Origin: a virus
Lineage: Duplodnaviria > Caudoviricetes
Strand: one strand, 5' to 3'
Length of the DNA stretch: 64,000 nt
IMG/VR virus record: IMGVR_UViG_3300033463_000014
Span: 96,001-160,000 of that record
Shown here: one piece after another, positions 2,663-53,909 of the stretch
Numbering within the stretch: the stretch's first letter is position 1
Layout of the letters: each line of letters opens with the position of its first letter
Position numbers and translations under genes: made by a program
The notes under the pieces: generated by a model
What the model was told of the DNA's origin: nothing
The model's database searches: none
Seen by the model: only the letters and a program-made list of their open reading frames with translations

Positions 2663-5600
2663 CCCTAATTCCACCCTTTTAACCCTAGCACAACATGGCG
2701 TTGGGGTCGTTCTTGACCAGCCTCACGATCTCACGGCACAGGCAGAACCGCTCGTCCTGCTCCGTGTGCAGTTTATCGTAGTTCCCTTCATCAAACTCGA
2801 CGCCCGCGTTCATGAGGCGGCGCTGAAGGAAATCGACATACCTGTCGCGCGCCCGATCATACCTGATAAAACGGTCGACCAGCTCCCGCAGGAGCTGGCC
2901 TTCCGTCATTTCACCGATGTCCTTAACCTTTCTGTCCATTGACACTTAGCACCTCCGTCTTGTAGACGGTCCAGACAATCTCCCTGTCAGAACCGGTGTA
3001 CCTGTACATCCTCACGCCGACGCTGGAACTCTCCGGTCTTGACAGCGTCTTCCGGACCTCAGTCCTGATGTCGCTATCGGAGTAGCTCATGCCATAATAG
3101 TTCTCGCGGACTCTGTTTGTTACCATCTGCCTGAGCATCCTTTCGCAGGACTTCCTGTCATCCAGCACGACAGCCGTTGCGTTCAGATGTCCTGGAATTG
3201 ATTCAGCTCCATAGCACGTCAGTCTGAACAACTCGCTGACAACCCAGACTTTTCCCATGGCCGAACACTCGGATGCATGACCGTTCTGTCTTACGAAAAC
3301 CCTCTTACCGCATGGATCAAATCCAACGATCATTCTTGTTTCCTCCTCCTGACCGGAGCGACACAGTCCCAGACCTCACCATCGGAACCGAGAAGATAGT
3401 ACCTCTTCTTAAAGTCCGAAGGCCATCCCGCAAGAGCAAGGGCTGGCATCACGAAGCTCCTCAGGTCGCCCGAGGCGAACACCTTCTTTGAGAACGGAAG
3501 AAGATAACGGGACGTGCCACTCGATGACAGCGAAACGCCGTTTGAAAGGCCTGTGTCATTTACGCGCAGCGTCCTTCCGCTTAACGTTATTACGGAAACC
3601 GCACCGTCGGCACGGTTCCCGTAAACGTCACAACCGAGAGACCCGTCGTGATCATTAACGAATCCGATTGAGACAACGCCTATTCCGGGACGGTAGAACA
3701 GATATCGCCCCTCGTACCTGTAACGGTTGCATGGGACATATCCGTCCGCGCACACTGTCGGCATGTTCTTCTTGAAAGCCCTCTTGACCTTGTCAGTCCA
3801 CACGCAACCGTCCGGCCCGCCTTCATTCTTCTCCGTATTCGGAATCATCCCTCTCTTCATACCCTCCTACTCCATTCTTCTTATCCATGTCCAGAGTCAC
3901 CCTCATCTCATGAGGGGAACCTATCCCAAGATAGTTCGGCGAGTAGTCATCGTCGCCTGACCACATCATGATGTTTGCGTGGGACGCATGCCATCCTTTC
4001 CCCAGGTTCTTGGCCTGGCGGATGATCTCCTCCGCGTCAGCGATTATATCCGGATAGACCAATTGGTCTCCAATCCTGATATTGACAAAAACGGTTATAT
4101 TCCATGACGAACCGCCGCACCTCCTCTCGATGTGTATGTTTCTTATTCTATCGCGCGGTATACCCTTGTTCTTTTTCTTGCCTGAGCTCATTTTTCCTCC
4201 TTGGAATCGTTCGGCACCCACTCCGAAAGCTTATCGGAGAGGGTCGTCTCCTTCCGTTTCCTGCACACAGAGCCGATCGCATATCCGATCGCTACCGAGA
4301 AACTCCACACAATAACGCTCACCGCAAACACATCAACACCGTTCATCATTCTCCCTCCCATATACGCCTTCTAGTCGTAACGCTCAGCATAGAGCGCCTC
4401 GTGCCGTCTTCGTACTTTTCGGATTCGACAAGATACTCGTCATAACCATCGTCCCTTCCGACGGACATACTTGACCCGTCCTCAAGATATGGCGCCAGTT
4501 CGGACATCGCGTCTTCCATGACTGAGCTCCAGCTGTATGATCCCCTGAATTCGCTCCGGTATGTCTCCCATCCTCCGTCGCATTCGTTATCGTACCTGCA
4601 CGAACCCTGGTGAAAGGCGAGTATGCACTTTATCATGCCCTCAAGCGTGTCGGTGTCGATACCGTTCTTGCGGCACTCTTCCCGGCACCAGCAGACATTT
4701 CCGAAACTGCCTTTCGGTCCGTACCTGGATTCCTTTTTCTCCATCCATTTCCGCAGGGAATCCCTCGCCTCATCGCGCTTCCCTTCCCTGAACTTAATGT
4801 CAAGGCATACGCTGTAGTTGTCTCCCATCACTTCCCCTTTCTTGACGCTCTCCTCTTTCTGGCGTTCGTGACCTTCACCTTAACCCTTACCCTCTTGACC
4901 CGGGCTCCGCAATCATCTCCTTCGGCGATATATTCACCGGCCTCTTCGACCGTGTCGAAACGGTCAGCAGTCTGAGGGTCTCCCCAGCAATCGACGACAG
5001 CGCCGTCCTCGAACGTACGCCAGTACGTGCCCGGGACGCTGCTTATGACGAAGAACTCGTCCGTATCGATCTTCATTTCTGGCTGTCCTCCAACCTCTCG
5101 AACTCTTCGGACTCCTCGACCTCATAGGTGACGTGAAAATTGGTCGCTAGTCCGTACCAGTCATACCCTCCTTTGAACCTATCGACTTCCCGTATCTCTT
5201 CGTCGACGATTCGTTCCGCATCGTATGGACTTCTAGCCTCTACGAAGAGATAGTGAGAGAGCGTGATCGCAGCCCTGACTTTGTATATCTGGACTTCTTT
5301 GCCTTCGTCGTCCTTATGCGAGAAGACGTGAACGGTCCTCTTCTTATGCTTCATGAGACATCCTTTCCTCCGATGTATGAACAGACATGTAAAGGCTAAT
5401 CATCCGCTTGGTGTTGCGCTTTACCGCCATCATTCGGAAACAGACTGAAGATGTAATCCATCGTCTCTCTGTCGGCCAGCTTCACATCTCCAGGATTCCC
5501 GTCTCTGATAACGTCATGCCTAAGAACCGCAAACCTCCCGGTAGGGAACACCTTGTTCCCTTCCGCGTCACGGATTGCGAACCTATCCTGGTTCCCGTAT

Positions 5601-8267
5601 CTGGATCCGTCTTCGTTCACCTCAACGATAAGGACGCCTTTCTTGAACTTCTCTTTGCACTCATCGCACGCGTCTAGACCCCCTGTAATTTCGTGGGGCG
5701 CCTCCAGGTCGCCCTTAATCCTTCCCATAAGCGCCACTCCCATGGGTTTCCCGCACCAGAAGCACTTAAGAACTGATGGGTTGACTCCATACTTTTTAGA
5801 CAACTTTATGCTCCTACCTTTTCTTCCCATTCGTTACCCCTTTCTTCACTTTCTTATCCGAAATCCCTTTCCCGGACGCCCTCGCCCGGCACTCCATCCA
5901 AAAGGCGATCGCCTTCCTCGACGCCTTAACGCAGTACAGGAGATGGTCTATCTTGAGCAAGTTCCTTTTGATACACCTTCGCTCCCTTGCTATGAATGAG
6001 TCTATCTCCTTCACGTAGAAATCTCCGACTACGTCGTCACCATTCTTCGCCATACGCATCCTCTTCTCCCATGTCCATCCCTATACCATGTATACGCTGA
6101 CGACAGGGATGTCGCAGTCCGGACTGTCCGGATCATCCTCGATCTTAACGTCGAACTCATCAAACTCCTTGTTCAGGAGATCCCTAATCTCTGAAATGGA
6201 CTCCTCGTCACCGCCGATGTAGTCTGCGTTCCAGATCCTGTGCCACTTGCCGTCCTTCTCGACGATCTTGAACCATATCTCGTCGTAGGCGATATCCATC
6301 AATTCATGCAGAACCATATGACATCCCTTTTCATACTCACCCAAGATGTAGGACGACCTTGTCAGTCCCGTAGTCGAAAGTGACCTGCCTCGCTCCCTGT
6401 CGAACGATCACACCGCCTCCGCACCAGCTGATTGACCTAAGGAAAGAGCTATCGCGGAAAACACGCTCGATCTCATCCATCGGCCGCAGCTTTTTACCAT
6501 AACCCTTGAAAAGGCCAACATCGTCCATGTCCTTCGCAACCAAGATCTTGCTATAGTCAAACCAGAAGAATCCCACCGCGTTCATCACGCTCGTTCGCCC
6601 TATCTTAACAGGGCGCCTCTCCTCGGCCTTCGCACGCTCGATAGCCTTCCTCTTCTCGCTCTTTCCCATCACTTCCTCCTTTTTCTTTTTGGAGTAACGG
6701 TCGCACAGGGAGATGACCTTCCTTCGCGACCACATAATCCCCTCGCGTATGTCGCAGTTCGTGTGAAGGCGTCCTGTGTCCTCCTCATACTGGGATACCC
6801 TCAGCGCCTTCGACACCTCTTCCCTCATGACCTCCGGAGAGAACACTGGCGGGCCGTCCGCTCCGATGACGATCTTATCCCTCTTCTTCATTCATCGTCT
6901 CCTGTCCTCTACCATACAGACGTCTTTCCCCGACTCGCACCATGTTCCGAATCCAAGGAGATGTTCCGGCATAGACGTGATGAAGTTCCTTATGCAGGCT
7001 ATCTCTCGCTCCTCCATCTTCATCGTAACCGAGCCAAAGACCCTGGAACCGATTTTTCTCTCGATCCTGAGGCGCGGCTTGGAAGCGGGGTCCCACTTGG
7101 CTTCCGACACATACACGATCGAGAAGTCGCCCTTTGACACCGTCCCTCCGCCCTTTCTGAAGCTCTCCTCGAGCTGGAGAGCCTCGCACGGGTTCAGGTT
7201 CATGTACGCCACGGTATCCGTCTCAGAGTCTGAGCGCCGCATCGATATGCACACTCCAAACGTACACTTCTCTAAATAAAGCTCGAACAACGCGCCGTCT
7301 ACAACCTTTCTGATCATACCGTTCCTTTCTCGTTACCACTTGTCCGGGTCGCCGCTCCACCTATCGGCCGACATGAGCAAATCAGCCATGTTCTCAAGCG
7401 CTATCTTTACGAACCGAACCTCGTGCTCCCTGAGCGGGAAAGAAATGATCGGGACGAGTCCGGACTCGCCCTCTGTCGCTATGGAGATCAACGAGTACAC
7501 ACCCAGTCCGCAGAACGCAAGGCACCTTCCGTCAAGCGCCCGTATCACGGCTCTTCCAGATGAAAGGCCTTCGATAAGCTCAGACACCTCGGACGGGCTC
7601 ATCACGAAGGACTCCCTCTCATCCTCCTTACCTTTCCCTTCGGGATATCTGCAGACCATGGAAACCATCACGCCTCCACTAACGAGGTCCATGGACAAAT
7701 CCAAAACCCTTCCGTCATCCATCTCTCTCTTGATCATATCGACACCCTTATCCCTTTTCCCCTAACCTTTACCGCGCTGATCCTAAACGCTTTACCACCC
7801 CTTACGAACCAGGCCTCGTCTCCGTTTGGCGAGTAATAGACGTCGAGGCACCCCTCGGTGTCCCCATCGGCGAACCCCTTGAAGTCGGCTAGGTTACCGA
7901 CCAACTCCGCTCCGCTTTCGTCGCGCACGACGACGTTTTCGAGCCACTCCTTCCTGATGACGTTTTCGATGAACGAGATAGCCTGATCCTTTGTGTCGAA
8001 CAAGGTGAAGGCAGCCCACACGCATTCCTCCGGCGACTCCCCTTCATACCACTCTGACTGGAGAACTGCCCAACCAATATCATCTGTATGACCCGACATT
8101 GTTACCCTCCTCATCATATGCGCAGTCTGGATACGAACCGACGACAAGCATGTTCGACAGGTCCGCATTCCCGAACTCTTCCTGCGCCTTCTCGAACGCT
8201 TCGTCAACGCTTTCCGCGTCTACACTGATTTCGATCCTTCCTTCGACGACCATATTAACGCTATACA

Positions 8268-39184: not shown

Positions 39185-41472
39185 CTAGCCGATATACGCG
39201 AGCTTGATCGCCTTGTCGCGAAGCATCTCCTCTTTCTCGACCTTCTCCTGCACTCGGTTGAGATACGACCGGTAGCTCTCGGAGATCGCCGAGATTTGGG
39301 CGGACACGTACCCGACCATCTTTTCGATTGTCGCGTTCGTGGCCACCTTCGGAAACCTCGTGATGAGGCAGGGCTTTCCGCCAAGCGTGATTACCACGCC
39401 GCCGGCATACACCTTCATCGCCATTTTTGTCGAGGAATAGCCAACTCGGTCGACAGCGTCAGGGCAGACCATATACAGACTTTTCCTGACCTCGTCGATC
39501 GCCTTCCTCGACGCCTCGATGATCGCGTCCGCCGCCTCGCGGTTCACGTTCCCGGAGAGCATCTCAGGGGGGAGACCAGCTTCCTTCAAGACATTTATAG
39601 CCTTTTCAAGCATTCCCGACTCCTCCGCGAGACCCTTGGCCTCCGAAGAGACTTTCCCACGCGCATCTACCGCGCTACGGATGCTCTCGATCTCGTTCTC
39701 TACCGTCCTCCTGATGTTACGGATAGCGGTGTCCGGGTTTCCGGTCCGCTCGACCGCTATAACAGGAGTCGAACCTGAGCTCACATAAATTCCGGCCCTG
39801 TCATAATCAACGCTGAACTCCACTTCTTCGAACTTAAACGGAAACCCGTTAGAGTCCGAAGTAATGGCGCCAACCCGATCATTCGCGACATCGATGATCT
39901 CATCTATCTTGTCCATAACGACTGTGAACTTCTGTCACATGTCAAATGACACTTCCCGCTTCAACGGATGCTCCACTTCGAGGCCCATGGACCTCGTCGC
40001 TTCAACACCCTCCACAGGCACTTTCCGAGTGACCCTCGGTGAAAATTCTCAGTCCCTCATCGCGAATATTCATGGATGCGTTCAGATCTCTGTCAAGCAC
40101 AGACCCGCACTCGGAGCATCTGTAAGTCCTCTCGTCGAGGCCAAGATGTTCCTTCACGTGTCCGCACTTCGAGCAACGCTTGCTCGATGGGAACCATCTG
40201 TCGATCTCCACATAGTTTCGACACTTATACGAGAGAAACATGCGCAGTTCCGCCATGCAACTCTGCTGAGCGCCTCTCCTTATGGATTTCATCGACCTCT
40301 TCATTCCCTCGACGCACAGGCTCTCACAACACACGACGCCGTGGTTTTTGGCAATCGCGGATGTGAACTTGTGCACCGCATCCATCTTCGCGTTTCGGAT
40401 TCTCTGGTGAAGCCTTGCAACTCGTCTTCTGGACTTGTTCCGGTTCTTCGAGCCCTTCTGCCGCCTGCTCAGCTCTCGCTGTGCATGCTTGAGACTCTTC
40501 TCCAGGCGAGGTATGGCCTTAGGCTTGTCGAGCACAGTTCCATCGGACGCGACCGCCCAATGCTTGATGCCGACGTCAATCCCGACAGCAGTCTCTCTAT
40601 CGGTAGGCACAATCTCGCCTTCCAGTTCAACGGTTATCGCAACATACCAACCGTCGGCTTGTTTGGACACTACGAATCTCAGGATGTCGCCCTTGAATCG
40701 CAGTTCTTCGGCCATGCGCACATCTCCAATGTTTGGCAGATGTATGCGCCTGCCGTCCTTGAGCCAGCCCTTGTCGTTCTGGACGTAAAACGAGTCTTTC
40801 CGACCCTTCTTGTGGAAGGTTGGATGTTTGGCCCGTTTCTTGAAGAAAGCAGAGAACGCCGCACCGAGATTCATCAGTGCTTGGGTTTGTGCGCCTCTAG
40901 CTATCTCTTTAGCCCATTCGGGACGCTCGACAGTCCAGAGCTTAGACAGCGTGTACTTGCTGCACTCTTCACCATTCTTGCGCATCTCATCCCATTTGGC
41001 CAAACCCCAGTTGTAGCAATAGCGAACCGTACCGGCCGTCTTGGCCAGCATAATCGCCTGCTCCTTGTTGGGATAGAGCCTAATCTGGTGGGATCTTGTC
41101 ACGCCACATATCATAGGATACTAATCCAATTTTGTCAACGTGGCAAGTGAGAATTTCTTGTGTCAATTGACCATGCTTGTGTTCACACGGGTTCGCTACT
41201 CCCGTGCAGTTTAACCGGCGGTCAACCGGGACATCTTCTGGTTTCCCAGAAGCACAGACTATATCATCATCCCATTCCTGGGATGGAGCACTTCGACTCG
41301 CTTGAGCCTACTCCATTGCGGGATAGTCGTTGAACCTTCTCGGATAGGGGTATCCCTCCACACCGAGCTTGGCTGCTGATTGCCATAGGCACTCCTGCCA
41401 TTAGGTGTTCCAGCAATTCACTTTCTTTTATTCACCGCAGATCGCTCTGCGGCGGGACTCTTACGAATCCAT
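39185..41472 (-). CDS. Intron-split hypothetical gene: exon 1 41467..41472 (ATG GAT), exon 2 39185..39931
   Basis: SD GAAAGGGA before ATG at 41472; joined exons read MDKFTVVMDKIDEIIDV in frame with ORF 39185..39916. Confidence 0.75.
40002..41102 (-). CDS. tnpB: TnpB RNA-guided endonuclease (IS200/IS605/IS607 family)
   Basis: IRLYPN.EQ N-terminus, RuvC GIDVG / CESL / DRDLNA, zinc finger CSKCG..CSECG; catalytic D-E-D present; start GTG 41102 or ATG 41114. Confidence 0.95.
   Translation of the reverse strand: MTRSHQIRLYPNKEQAIMLAKTAGTVRYCYNWGLAKWDEMRKNGEECSKYTLSKLWTVERPEWAKEIARGAQTQALMNLGAAFSAFFKKRAKHPTFHKKGRKDSFYVQNDKGWLKDGRRIHLPNIGDVRMAEELRFKGDILRFVVSKQADGWYVAITVELEGEIVPTDRETAVGIDVGIKHWAVASDGTVLDKPKAIPRLEKSLKHAQRELSRRQKGSKNRNKSRRRVARLHQRIRNAKMDAVHKFTSAIAKNHGVVCCESLCVEGMKRSMKSIRRGAQQSCMAELRMFLSYKCRNYVEIDRWFPSSKRCSKCGHVKEHLGLDERTYRCSECGSVLDRDLNASMNIRDEGLRIFTEGHSESACGGC
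41110..41138 (-). promoter_or_regulatory. Sigma70-type promoter for tnpB inside the intron
   Basis: TTGACA (41133-41138), 17-nt spacer, TATGAT (41110-41115). Confidence 0.75.
41175..41466 (-). ncRNA. Group I ribozyme core
   Basis: P, Q, R, S elements in canonical order; P7 GACTA/TAGTC complementarity; GNRA-capped peripheral hairpins. Confidence 0.88.
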
Positions 41473-41532
41473 TCTGTATCCCTTTCGTGTTTGTGGTTGT
41501 GTTTGTGGTTGTGGTTGATACCCTTTCGGGTG

Positions 41533-42936
41533 TTAGATAAGGAACGTCAACCGGCTTGGGTCTTGGAAATCCTGGAAGAACCCCATATTTCCGAACCGTT
41601 TTCTCCTATCGCCGTCCCTTATCGCAAGATGTCCTGGACGTCCGTTGTGGAAATCCCATCCATTCTCGAACGTGAACACGTGAGCGGATTCGCCGGGGAA
41701 CCTTGGCTTGCCTGTCGGTATGCGCCAGTCAGCGACCTCCGCTCCTCCGCACGTAGCAAGGATGACGACCCTGTGTTCTGACGGCGGAGGCAGAATGTCC
41801 GCCGTTACGATCGCCTTCCTCACCGTTCCGTTCTCGATTCCAGTGAACAGGTTTCTCCTGTCACGTACCTTCATTCTCCTGTCCGACACAGGTATGTCGG
41901 ATTGCTCCTTCTCCGAATATGCCTTGGCGATCCTTTCCGCTATGGCAAGGTTCGCACAGCAGCATATGGCGCCCATGTCGTCGGGCGTCTTACTTATGAT
42001 CCCCGCTACCGTTTCGCAGAAATCTGGATTTTCCGTCATAGCGACGGACTCCATGAATCTGAAAGATGCATTCCACGCGTAGCTCGGCTGCTTCATCCGT
42101 ATCCAGTGTACGGACACCTTCAGCGCAGATCCGTCAGCGACGGCGTCGGCATGCGTTGCTGATGCCACCACAGGTCCGAAAAGGCCCTCGCACAGGATAG
42201 GCTCTCGGATCCTGTCTCCTCCCTCGAAGGTCGCCAGAATACCCCACCTTGCCGCGTTCCTGACAGACGAAACCGGCTCAAGAGCGAGCTCCATGCTGTC
42301 AGTTATCTGTGCGACAACGACGCCGACGGCCGTAAGCGGGAGATCGCACATCGACCCGTAGTCAGTGACGATCACGTCGTCCGAGTCCACCAGGGAGTGG
42401 CCTATCGAAAGCCCGACGTCCCTCTCCGGCATCTCAACCATGAGCCTGGCGTGCAGGTATCTGGCCGAATCTTGGTCCGAAGAAACCACGAGGGAGAGCG
42501 GAGTCCCCCTCATGGCCAAGTCTTTTGACCCGAACGCACGTATGATGGCCGTTGCCATTCTGGCGAACCCGAACGAATGCGGGATGCAGACAGTCCCTCC
42601 GCATGACATGATAGCCCTGACGGCAGTGTCCCTGAACAGGCCATCGCACGAACCGACAGCCTCGAAGTAGTCCGGATCAGGCATAGGAATCCTTCCGTCG
42701 ACTATCTTCGCATAGCCTTCAGCAGATATGCCTCCTATGATGCGGCTAGCGAACCCAGGCATGGTCAGAATCTTGTTCGGAAGAGGCAATGAGAAAAGGT
42801 TTTCATAATGTCCTTCACCCGATCCATCCTCCCTCCTGAACACCCTTAGGTCTCTTAGACGCTCCTCAATGGCTTTCATGCTACCGGCATTGTCTTCCTC
42901 GATGACTATCGACCCTCTGTTCAGAAAGACTTTCAT
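41533..42936 (-). CDS. Degenerate SF2 helicase-like protein
   Basis: Two RecA-like alpha/beta domain patterns (RWGILAT, EGLFGPVV) but no intact GKT or DExH motif. Confidence 0.45.
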   Translation of the reverse strand: MKVFLNRGSIVIEEDNAGSMKAIEERLRDLRVFRREDGSGEGHYENLFSLPLPNKILTMPGFASRIIGGISAEGYAKIVDGRIPMPDPDYFEAVGSCDGLFRDTAVRAIMSCGGTVCIPHSFGFARMATAIIRAFGSKDLAMRGTPLSLVVSSDQDSARYLHARLMVEMPERDVGLSIGHSLVDSDDVIVTDYGSMCDLPLTAVGVVVAQITDSMELALEPVSSVRNAARWGILATFEGGDRIREPILCEGLFGPVVASATHADAVADGSALKVSVHWIRMKQPSYAWNASFRFMESVAMTENPDFCETVAGIISKTPDDMGAICCCANLAIAERIAKAYSEKEQSDIPVSDRRMKVRDRRNLFTGIENGTVRKAIVTADILPPPSEHRVVILATCGGAEVADWRIPTGKPRFPGESAHVFTFENGWDFHNGRPGHLAIRDGDRRKRFGNMGFFQDFQDPSRLTFLI

Positions 42937-42944
42937 AACTTTCC

Positions 42945-44030
42945 TTAGACGCCTTCCTGGCCCGACATGAACTTCTCCACGAGAAGGTGGATCGATGCCG
43001 GCTCCGGAGAATGCAGAAAGCTTGCCGTAAGGCGTGCCTCACTGCTGTCCCTAGGGAACCTAGCCTCGATTGCGGACGCAAGAGTTGCCACACTCTCTTT
43101 CCTGTCGACAACAGGAGCGAGATCCCTCGCCTTGCTAGACCGCATGATGATTCGTCCCATGCTTGACGTGTCGTGGATAACCTGGCTCAGACGCTTGAAC
43201 ACATCGTTCACCGAGTCATCCGCGATTATCTGCCAGAATGTTCTGTCCTCTCTGGCAATCCCGAGACTGTCCTCCTCTGCCATGTCAGCGGAAGCGTTGG
43301 CAAGATCAGACTCGCTAGAGATCTCTAACTGTCCCACTTTCCTTGTCCTGAGCCTGACAGGCTCCGCGTTCCACGTGTCCGTCTCAAGGAGGAACCAGTA
43401 CTTCTCCTCCGGCTCGTTCGACGACTTCATCTCGGTCGATCCTGGGTTTACGAACAGGATACCGTTCCACGTCCTTGCGTCAGGGATGTGGACATGGCCC
43501 ATGAGCACGCACCGTACGCCCATCTTCTCGAGCATAGGGCACAGCTCCTGTACGCCGGTGTCTGCCGACCCGCCTCCGTTCATCTCGGAAAGCGCGAAAT
43601 GAAGGACAATGATATCGGCCTTCGTTCCGATGTCAACGAGACGCTGGATCTCCTCGACGAGGTCCCGCCCGTTTCGGTAATTCACCCCTATGATCCTTAT
43701 GCCACCTACCGTGACGGGTTTTTCGGAAAGCGGCGTCGCGCCGATCACATCAGCCCATTTCCCGTCAGACAGGTCATGGTTTCCGTCTACGGACAGAACG
43801 TTTACGGCCCTCTCCCTGATCTTCCCGATTACCTCCTTCGCGCAGAGAACGGATCCTGCGTCAGGACGAGGGGAATCGAACAGATCCCCTCCTATGACGA
43901 CTGCTTCCGGCCTATGCGAAAGGACATCCTCCCCGAAGCGCCTGAACGCATCCAGGAAGTCTTCGTACCTTTCCTTGAGATTGTACTGGCGCGTGCCAAG
44001 ATGCACGTCGCTAATCAGCGCTATTCTCAT
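42945..44030 (-). CDS. sbcD: SbcD/Mre11-like metallophosphoesterase nuclease
   Basis: SDVHLG, GGDLFD, DGNHD, GHVH, NPGS motifs; adjacent to SbcC. Confidence 0.92.
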   Translation of the reverse strand: MRIALISDVHLGTRQYNLKERYEDFLDAFRRFGEDVLSHRPEAVVIGGDLFDSPRPDAGSVLCAKEVIGKIRERAVNVLSVDGNHDLSDGKWADVIGATPLSEKPVTVGGIRIIGVNYRNGRDLVEEIQRLVDIGTKADIIVLHFALSEMNGGGSADTGVQELCPMLEKMGVRCVLMGHVHIPDARTWNGILFVNPGSTEMKSSNEPEEKYWFLLETDTWNAEPVRLRTRKVGQLEISSESDLANASADMAEEDSLGIAREDRTFWQIIADDSVNDVFKRLSQVIHDTSSMGRIIMRSSKARDLAPVVDRKESVATLASAIEARFPRDSSEARLTASFLHSPEPASIHLLVEKFMSGQEGV

Positions 44031-53832: not shown

Positions 53833-53909
53833 TGGTGCGCGTGCCGGGACTTGAACCCGGAACCTGCGGATTAGGAATCCGCCGCTCTGTCCAGTTGAGC
53901 TACACGCGC
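53833..53909 (-). tRNA. tRNA-Arg, anticodon CCT
   Basis: GCGCGTG acceptor, TAGCTCAACTGGACAGAGC D arm, GCGGA-TTCCTAA-TCCGC anticodon arm, GGTTCAAGTCC T arm, encoded CCA. Confidence 0.96.

Follow-up and report, generated by a model that had tools for sequence, protein, structure and literature searches.

The locus and its features

We analysed a stretch of 64,000 nucleotides (nt), hereafter the window, which comprises bases 96001-160000 of the IMG/VR virus record IMGVR_UViG_3300033463_000014 (Duplodnaviria; Caudoviricetes), a phage genome of 181,382 bp that has direct terminal repeats and is rated complete. On the minus strand, inside a block of co-oriented genes, a gene for a protein of unassigned function is interrupted after its second codon by an element that combines a group I ribozyme with an intact tnpB gene and is very probably an IStron. 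To our knowledge, only IStrons unite a ribozyme, a transposon and an RNA-guided nuclease in one sequence, and work on them has dealt with two or three elements from clostridia and Bacillus. The GC content is 58% in the genome and 53% in the IStron. The features of the locus are as follows (window positions; slashes in sequences mark exon-intron or exon-exon junctions).

41467..41472, minus strand: 5' exon, ATG start plus GAT, whose final GGAT is the motif at the target/target-adjacent motif (TAM) position (from sequence)
39932..41466, minus strand: whole IStron, 1,535 nt, from the first intron base (41466) to the terminal G (omegaG, 39932), as delimited by family similarity
41455..41470, minus strand: helix P1, GGAU/UC, loop GUAA, internal guide sequence GAGUCC
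41433..41454, minus strand: P2 hairpin, 6 of 8 pairs with changes on both sides
41235..41458, minus strand: group I ribozyme core, P2 to P9 (Rfam RF00028)
41179..41184, minus strand: GAACAC motif after P9.2 (sequence, matched to a description in PMC4227781)
41160..41169, minus strand: 5' arm of the inverted-repeat (IR) stem, CAAUUGACAC, looping out the tnpB region; 9 of 10 bases complementary to 39952-39943
41110..41138, minus strand: internal sigma-70-type promoter, TTGACA-17 nt-TATGAT, 11 of 12 consensus matches
41116..41127, minus strand: hairpin GGAT-TAGT-ATCC in the promoter spacer, 5' arm identical to the element's own 5'-exon target
40002..41102, minus strand: tnpB, 366 amino acids (aa) from a conserved GTG (370 aa with ATG 41114 as the start), recognized in Pfam, PHROG and PDB searches
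39932..40057, minus strand: omegaRNA-like scaffold/right end, overlapping the last 18 tnpB codons (conservation, covariation)
39943..39952, minus strand: 3' arm of the IR stem, GUGUCAUUUG, alternatively a local hairpin
39916..39931, minus strand: predicted guide/target, the first 16 nt of exon 2, AAGTTCACAGTCGTTA (from its position relative to the right end)
39185..39931, minus strand: exon 2 of the host gene, the spliced product being a 250-aa protein

The left junction reads ...AAAGGGATACAGA ATG GAT / TCGTAAGAGTCC..., and the element ends in ...ACATGTGACAG (...GTGACAG) at 39932. Joining the exons gives ATG GAT / AAG TTC ACA GTC GTT ATG GAC, i.e. MD/KFTVVMDKIDE, in frame with the open reading frame (ORF) 39185-39916, just as an initial annotation of this locus had proposed (ATGGAT/AAGTTC). 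Translation from ATG 39916, which would place the IStron in a 5' untranslated region, was judged less likely: a ribosome-binding site is absent before this ATG in both RNA forms, and AAGGGA lies 7 nt 5' of ATG 41472. In addition, a homologue of the host protein (P0002) has an N-terminus similar in size to that of the spliced product. The IStron accounts for the apparently missing start of the host gene in annotation.

The ends of the element can be placed to the base by comparison with its relatives (copies and contigs are referred to below by L numbers). A right-end pattern search found 31 metagenome loci, in addition to L008, in which similarity runs to the terminal G and is lost right after it, at the GACAG where the initial annotation had put the end; the 31 contigs align to the IStron at 69-92% identity up to this G and are unlike it 3' of the G. 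At the left end, similarity between sister copies sets in at the first base of the window IStron. Every family member has an ACAG terminus, and wherever the left flank could be read (14 sites), its last base is T.

A covarying group I ribozyme whose guide sequence follows the target

The group I core that had been proposed upstream of tnpB is recognized by the Rfam model RF00028 at 41458-41235 with 63.9 bits (gathering threshold 50, E 7e-14), which is the sole such match in the 181,382-bp genome, and the P1 helix with a U.G pair right after ATG GAT was located at 41470-41455. In an alignment of 13 sequences, standard pairs occupy 94% of the ribozyme cells, compared with 75% in column shuffles and 33-48% with slid partners, and compensatory changes are found in 43 of 64 pairs, compared with 11-19 when the partners are slid; the observed values were reached by 0 of 500 shuffles. 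The helices thus covary strongly, and the ribozyme is under selection. In P1, 5 of 6 pairs change on both sides, and all but one of the 13 sequences have the U.G pair at the junction.

P1 is the most telling helix, as its guide sequence tracks the 5' exon of each copy. The pairs are listed here (5' exon; guide sequence; copies); the U.G pair is present throughout this series. L009 and L011 were omitted, as the 5' splice site of the former and the right end of the latter could not be placed by eye.

GGAU; GAGUCC; window, L045, L050, L051
GGAU; GGUCC; L010
GAGU; GAGCUC; L026, L029, L033
GGGU; GAGCCCC; L034
GCAU; GAGUGCC; L038
GGCU; GAGGCC; L063
GCGU; GAGCGCC; L065

Such a series might be expected if the element spread at the RNA level, with the excised intron reverse-splicing into transcripts that offer 4-6 nt of complementarity to the guide sequence, followed by reverse transcription and recombination. 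It would fit with this that five sites share GGAT and the same guide sequence, that three share GAGT and that every target ends in T, as P1 requires. However, the process needs a reverse transcriptase, of which none was seen; it makes TnpB irrelevant to spread, leaving the conserved right-end RNA and the purifying selection on TnpB (see below) unexplained, and it does not explain the change of guide sequence between close copies. We therefore consider it very improbable.

Group A IStrons have a ribozyme of subclass IA2 with P9.0, P9.1 and P9.2. In the window IStron two more hairpins come after P9, followed by GAACAC; in all described IStrons, the IS part begins after a motif of the GAACGA/GAACAA/GAACAC type (PMC4227781). 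The ACA of the terminal GACAG could pair with a UGU to form P9.0; these bases are invariant, hence they give no covariation signal. The two arms of the IR stem differ from those of the window in a mini-element on contig L010 (ATAATAACAC and GTGTTATTAT) but are still perfectly complementary, i.e. the changes are fully compensated. In isolated phages, similarity at the DNA level is confined to the ribozyme core, which resembles many phage introns.

A sibling intron without an ORF was observed in L026 (10158-10443, 79 bits), 10 nt past a start codon. It ends in GAACAC-TACAG and thus consists of a ribozyme without an IS part. The same 11-kb contig also holds a full IStron (4466-5998) and two tRNA genes.

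The window IStron is very likely to splice.

TnpB and the right-end RNA

TnpB is the only IStron ORF with a family match; no ORF of the LAGLIDADG, GIY-YIG or HNH type is present. The ORF 41114-40002 matches the Pfam families HTH_OrfB_IS605 (2e-16), OrfB_IS605 (4e-25) and Cas12f1-like_TNB (6e-18), and its product matches the ISDra2 TnpB structures 8bf8/8exa with E 3e-47. The motifs GIDVG, CCESL and DRDLNA align to GVDVG, GTEHL and DRDEN of ISDra2 (D191, E278 and D361; the position of D191 was checked by counting along 8bf8 in the alignment). In line with the initial annotation, TnpB therefore retains the RuvC triad, as D176/E260/D339 in GTG numbering (codons 40577-40575, 40325-40323 and 40088-40086), and the zinc finger, with two CxxC pairs (CSKCG and CSECG). 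GTG 41102, kept across the family, is likely to be the start codon, since ATG 41114 lies inside the -10 box of the internal promoter and reads ATA in sister copies. Public gene calls for family TnpBs mostly give 348-350 aa because gene callers fall back on an internal ATG.

The ratio of nonsynonymous to synonymous substitution rates (dN/dS) between the window gene and 12 sister genes is 0.07-0.20 (dS 0.7-1.4), and the catalytic and zinc-binding residues are conserved among sister TnpBs; TnpB is under strong purifying selection. The element also lacks a transposase, as initially noted: there is no room for tnpA inside the IStron, and no Y1_Tnp match was found anywhere in the 181-kb genome. The absence of tnpA, together with the presence of one copy in this genome, would suit an immobile relic in which the intron keeps a dead insertion harmless while tnpB decays. 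Against this stand the intact ORF and catalytic residues, the low dN/dS, the conservation of promoter and right end and the hundreds of relatives at many sites, such that this explanation is already disfavoured and seems hardly tenable.

From about 40057 to 39932 the sequence is near-invariant in 26 copies, and synonymous sites upstream are variable. Within it, the stem 139-144/149-154 covaries (five pair types at 139:154 and GC/AU alternation at 140:153), and the conserved RNA stops exactly at the element boundary. No Rfam family was assigned to it, as a scan of 39700-41700 at E <= 10 gave the intron only. The right-end RNA is thus also under selection, and the pattern fits an omegaRNA scaffold that would overlap the 3' end of tnpB. 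The idea that the right end supplies a scaffold and the flank a guide also fits the sequence that follows: AAGTTCACAGTCGTTA is unique in the genome, the next-best sites having at least 3 mismatches and none of them GGAT. At the TAM position the occupied allele has ACAG, and the empty allele would have GGAT. TnpB and its omegaRNA probably form an active nuclease.

A predicted internal promoter with a copy of the target

In all 14 sequences examined (the window promoter and 13 sister copies), a promoter of the form TTGACn-N17-TATAAT (with TATGAT in the window) is kept 7 nt before the conserved GTG. The match between the 5' arm of the spacer hairpin and the copy's own target recurs in 8 of 11 copies and in four target classes: GGAT (window, L050 and L051), GAGT (L026, L029 and L033), GGGT (L034) and GGCT (L063, retrieved only after the pattern had been noticed). 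The 3' arm of the L026 hairpin is GCTC. Near misses were found in L045 and L065 and a miss in L038, and the subfamily of L058 and L066 has another promoter and lacks the hairpin. Target class does not track TnpB similarity, the window (GGAT) being closest to L029 (GAGT), so the association of hairpin and target is not one of simple whole-element descent; recombination that co-inherits the 5' 350 nt could lower the count of independent events. Candidate explanations for the hairpin are an RNA mimic of the 5' exon and guide sequence and an inner left end of the IS part.

The interrupted gene and its surroundings

The 250-aa host protein gave 0 matches in Pfam or PHROG. Its AlphaFold model (predicted local distance difference test score 70) predicts two repeats that both consist of a sheet of three strands and, after it, a long helix, and had no Foldseek match at E <= 0.001. 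A protein search found three homologues only (P0002-P0004), with 36-40% identity. All three genes are uninterrupted and keep the same gene order, adjoining SbcCD-like genes, and two of the proteins have an additional N-terminal domain of about 95 aa. A second contig encodes an identical exon-2 protein. The gene interrupted in L033 was considered as a homologue of the window host gene and rejected.

Upstream of the interrupted gene are genes for an SbcD-like phosphoesterase (42945-44030) and a 467-aa protein without known function; proteins of 421 and 326 aa, neither with a known function, are encoded 3' of it. The window also contains a tRNA gene at 53836-53909 on the minus strand (Rfam, 71.7 bits).

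A family of copies at many sites

A total of 390 TnpB clusters are related to the window TnpB at E <= 1e-100, many of them on contigs of 155-203 kb, a size range that includes this phage; some contigs carry two copies. Across the family more than 35 distinct 3' flanks were found, four of these sites coming from later look-ups. The full-length copies L026, L029, L038, L045/L048, L050 and L051 are 1,530-1,544 nt long and contain only tnpB, and an open frame is kept across the joined flanks in the window, L010, L026, L029, L038, L045 and L051. Among the genes that copies interrupt or adjoin are nrdD and genes for C5 and N6/N4 DNA methylases, for a radical-SAM protein and for an HD-domain protein. 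Several copies lie near gene starts: those of the window and L050 after ATG GAT, that of L045 at the start codon and that of L026 between GGAG and ATG. At a gene start or after a Shine-Dalgarno-like GGAG/AGGA, splicing would be needed to join the ribosome-binding site with the coding sequence. The smallest form is the mini-IStron L010:3220-3721 (502 nt), which retains the ribozyme, a promoter-like region and the right end and lacks tnpB; L032 and L049 contain the same element. It interrupts nrdD in a viral contig, where it follows CTTGGAT, and the exons join in frame.

The flanks of L023, L033, L037, L038, L041 and L042 are homologous to the window or to L002/L004, two contigs that bear homologues of the interrupted gene of the window. 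In particular, those of L038 are co-linear with window 24821-24242 and 24202-24044, where the window has an empty site (minus strand, 24242/24241) that reads ...CCGTTCGGAAT/GCTATGGAAG... and encodes PPFGM/LWKF, compared with PPYGM/YWKH for the joined exons of L038. The guide of L038 would not match this site, because the motif is GAAT rather than GCAT and the following 16 nt differ at 7 positions. The radical-SAM gene of L004 was considered as an empty site for L045 and rejected, as the genes are not orthologous.

Among prokaryotes (185,579 species, one genome each), the right-end pattern was absent and the best TnpB was just 38% identical, so no bacterial reservoir of the family is seen. Isolated phages contain no close copy, their TnpBs being at most 39% identical. 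A first, looser right-end pattern gave 10 matches in viral contigs, and a longer pattern was used afterwards; 8 of the 10, roughly as many as chance would give, lacked a family flank or TnpB match, and L010 was the only family member, with L018 outside this check. Overall, the family seems to be limited to a single clade of large phages, and it has no transposase of its own. L067 (183,875 bp, GCA_017405115.1), a phage-sized contig with a family member whose TnpB is 72% identical, is binned in a Kiritimatiellae metagenome-assembled genome, which is a weak hint at the host of the phage clade.

Some further observations concern the make-up of single copies. L058 and L062 have identical TnpBs and 3' flanks and differ in their P1/P2 left ends; either the copies have recombined or the assembly is chimeric at a repeat. 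L022:306-495 and L028:4772-4861 contain only the final ~163 nt (the right-end RNA and 32 tnpB codons), a motif search found no intron core upstream of them, and they may be solo right ends or truncated copies. In the distant phage-like contigs L009 (2549-4171) and L011 (4960-6510), a closely related ribozyme core accompanies other TnpBs (47-48% identical in L009; an unaligned 417-aa protein in L011), which points to one intron lineage with differing TnpB cargo.

How do copies arise at new sites? One possibility is single-strand transposition by a Y1 transposase (TnpA) that an IS200/IS605 element in the host or in a different phage supplies in trans, in which case TnpB would merely restore the IStron after excision and would not invade other phages. 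In IS608 and ISDra2, the target is read at the left end by base pairing with a sequence 5' of a subterminal hairpin. The left end of the window IStron follows this IS200/IS605 layout, with the target, about 12 nt and a hairpin, and with target-complementary sequence directly 5' of that hairpin. P2 occupies the place of the subterminal hairpin, which suggests a link to TnpA. At the right end, 9 nt short of the terminus, there is a small hairpin that covaries. A change of the complementary sequence would amount to retargeting and would explain why guide and target change together; furthermore, more than 35 distinct sites call for a transposition-like step. Multi-copy IStrons without TnpA have been described in C. 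difficile (PMC4227781; 10.1101/2023.11.20.567912). Yet Y1_Tnp is missing from the 181-kb genome, the full-length sister copies are all tnpB-only and no bacterial reservoir of close TnpB relatives was seen. We regard this account as somewhat doubtful; it is compatible with the explanation that we prefer and differs from it in the process of spread.

A model for splicing, retention and homing

The best explanation overall, to which we assign a probability of about 0.8, is a transposase-less IStron of group A (IS200/IS605-type) that combines splicing with TnpB-guided retention or homing. In the host-gene transcript, the 5' ribozyme would fold and its guide sequence would pair with the GGAU of the 5' exon, the 10-bp IR stem would loop out tnpB and bring the remote 3' splice site to the core, and all 1,535 nt would be removed, joining ATGGAT to AAGTTC to give the 250-aa host protein. 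A second kind of transcript would start from the internal promoter 3' of the ribozyme, at or beside the tnpB GTG. As these RNAs would have no ribozyme, they could not splice and would hence yield TnpB and omegaRNA, so that a separate internal promoter would be a plausible way round the conflict between intron and omegaRNA. With the right end as scaffold and the first ~16 nt of exon 2 as guide, the complex would cut an element-free copy of the gene, in which GGAT directly precedes AAGTTCACAGTCGTTA, and spare the occupied copy (ACAG). Repair from the occupied copy would re-install the IStron, either where it had been lost (retention) or in a relative present in the same infection (homing). TnpB-driven retention, like the competition of intron with omegaRNA, is an established mechanism in other IStrons (10.1101/2023.11.20.567912). 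New sites would need an extra step, most likely involving Y1 TnpA in trans.

Several points weigh against this model. First, no intron-less allele of the host gene was found: a peptide-pattern scan of viral contigs and a degenerate junction pattern gave none, such that the empty site predicted by the initial annotation was absent from the collections searched, and none of the three homologues from the protein search is, at 36-40% identity, close enough to be cut. Second, the 4 nt at the TAM position vary between close sisters whose TnpBs are about 90% identical, so that either the TAM is loose (roughly G-N-N-T) or the site is not constrained by TnpB. The TAM of about (T)GGAT that had been proposed holds for this copy and four other sites, but sisters follow GAGT, GGGT, GGCT, GCAT, GCGT, AGGT and TGAT, so a protein-read motif cannot be a fixed GGAT family-wide. 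Third, more than 35 different sites are inexplicable by homing and require another step, most simply a Y1 transposase in trans. Finally, the promoter was scored against the sigma-70 consensus, which may not be that of the host, and GTG would be an unusual start codon for an RNA that is leaderless or near-leaderless. We infer that homing between phages could be a main route of spread, at somewhat less than even odds.

The same complex might serve mainly as a weapon between phages, selected because it excludes a co-infecting genome or nearby markers, with copying of the element as a by-product. Phage intron-encoded and free-standing endonucleases act in this way (reviewed in PMC13565253), and strong purifying selection on TnpB in a phage-restricted family would be in keeping with it. 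However, the anatomy predicts a cleavage and repair outcome identical to that of homing, no target allele was found, and nothing separates a weapon from homing; we consider this quite improbable as the main role. A more far-reaching version of the preferred model is a phage-adapted lineage without a transposase, which would persist and spread by RNA-guided homing among phages of roughly 155-200 kb, divide splicing and guide RNA between two transcripts and use the hairpin. Here the hairpin could mimic the exon or guide and so control splicing or the processing of RNA; alternatively, it could be an additional left end further inside. Either way, it would tie the choice of target to expression. 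In full, this version is unlikely.

Comparison with known systems

IStrons were first defined in Clostridioides difficile, where the CdISt1 type reportedly goes back to a study by Braun from 2000. The window IStron belongs to group A (IS200/IS605-type), a known class, and departs from it in the target, (N)GGAT, and the terminus, ACAG. In the survey by Tourasse et al. (2014; PMC4227781), group A IStrons have TTGAT, ATTAT or TTTAT as their target, a TCAG terminus, a short IR stem and IS200/IS605 ORFs, and copies of CdISt1 with ORF B only as well as multi-copy TnpA-less lineages have been reported. CbISt3 and CbISt4, of group B, occur in the C. botulinum phages c-st and D-1873 (PMC4227781), and the restriction of IStrons to Clostridium and Bacillus chromosomes, as presented in the initial annotation, was wrong. 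For CboIStron, experiments showed that TnpB-omegaRNA cuts the donor joint and that it antagonizes splicing (Zedaveinyte 2023; 10.1101/2023.11.20.567912), and a 2026 review states that TnpA-less IStrons could spread by intron homing (PMC13565253).

The window IStron shares with group A (CdISt1/CdiIStrons, FnISt, EfISt) a 5' ribozyme and an IS part that follows P9.2 and a GAAC(A/G)(A/C)-type motif, a short balanced IR stem around the ORF (6-10 bp described; 10 bp here, 9 of 10 paired), a T-ending target, a P1 U.G pair flanked by pairs and a CAG terminus. Further common traits are an IS605-type TnpB, a right-end RNA as putative scaffold, frequent loss of tnpA and sense copies at unrelated sites. 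It differs in that the target is (N)GGAT here and G-N-N-T family-wide, the terminus has ACAG instead of TCAG, no tnpA remnant whatever is present, and the family resides in a clade of ~155-200 kb phages and not in bacterial chromosomes; its TnpB is at most 39% identical to any TnpB of an isolated phage. The conserved internal promoter and the target-copy hairpin were not among the features retrieved by term searches of IStron papers. New here are the size of the family, its confinement to similar phages, the conserved internal promoter and the target-copy hairpin.

The family provides a set of P1/target pairs that nature has retargeted. Its separate internal promoter is a candidate solution to the conflict between splicing and guide RNA, and it could serve as a simple test system for the RNA-guided homing of introns among phages in co-infection. 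In addition, the natural variation in the motifs that flank its compact TnpBs of 366 aa may interest studies of TAM recognition, and the IStron explains why gene callers shorten TnpBs of this type to 348-350 aa.

CbISt3, CbISt4 and CboIStron are, like the window IStron, located on phage genomes, and for CboIStron splicing, donor-joint cleavage and competition between intron and omegaRNA are experimental findings. These are group B (IS607-type) IStrons, whose target ends in GG (TGGG) and whose terminus is CGG; their IR stem is long and AU-rich, and they encode a serine TnpA. The window IStron has none of these features, with its T-ending target, ACAG terminus and balanced 10-bp IR stem. With ISDra2 of Deinococcus radiodurans, the window TnpB shares the domain order and catalytic triad. 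The guide from the right-end flank and the TAM equal to the left-flank target are also common to both, as predicted features in the window, and TTGAT of ISDra2 resembles TGGAT. ISDra2 is intron-free, carries tnpA and has experimentally demonstrated activity, whereas that of the window TnpB is predicted from sequence. Lastly, the window IStron resembles phage group I introns that have protein homing endonucleases (T4 td, nrdB and sunY and those of Twort and SPO1) in being a predicted self-splicing intron of a phage gene that would spread by cutting the intron-less allele in co-infections, but it is unlike them in having an RNA-guided nuclease, a specificity that would lie in the flanking exon and transposon-type ends.

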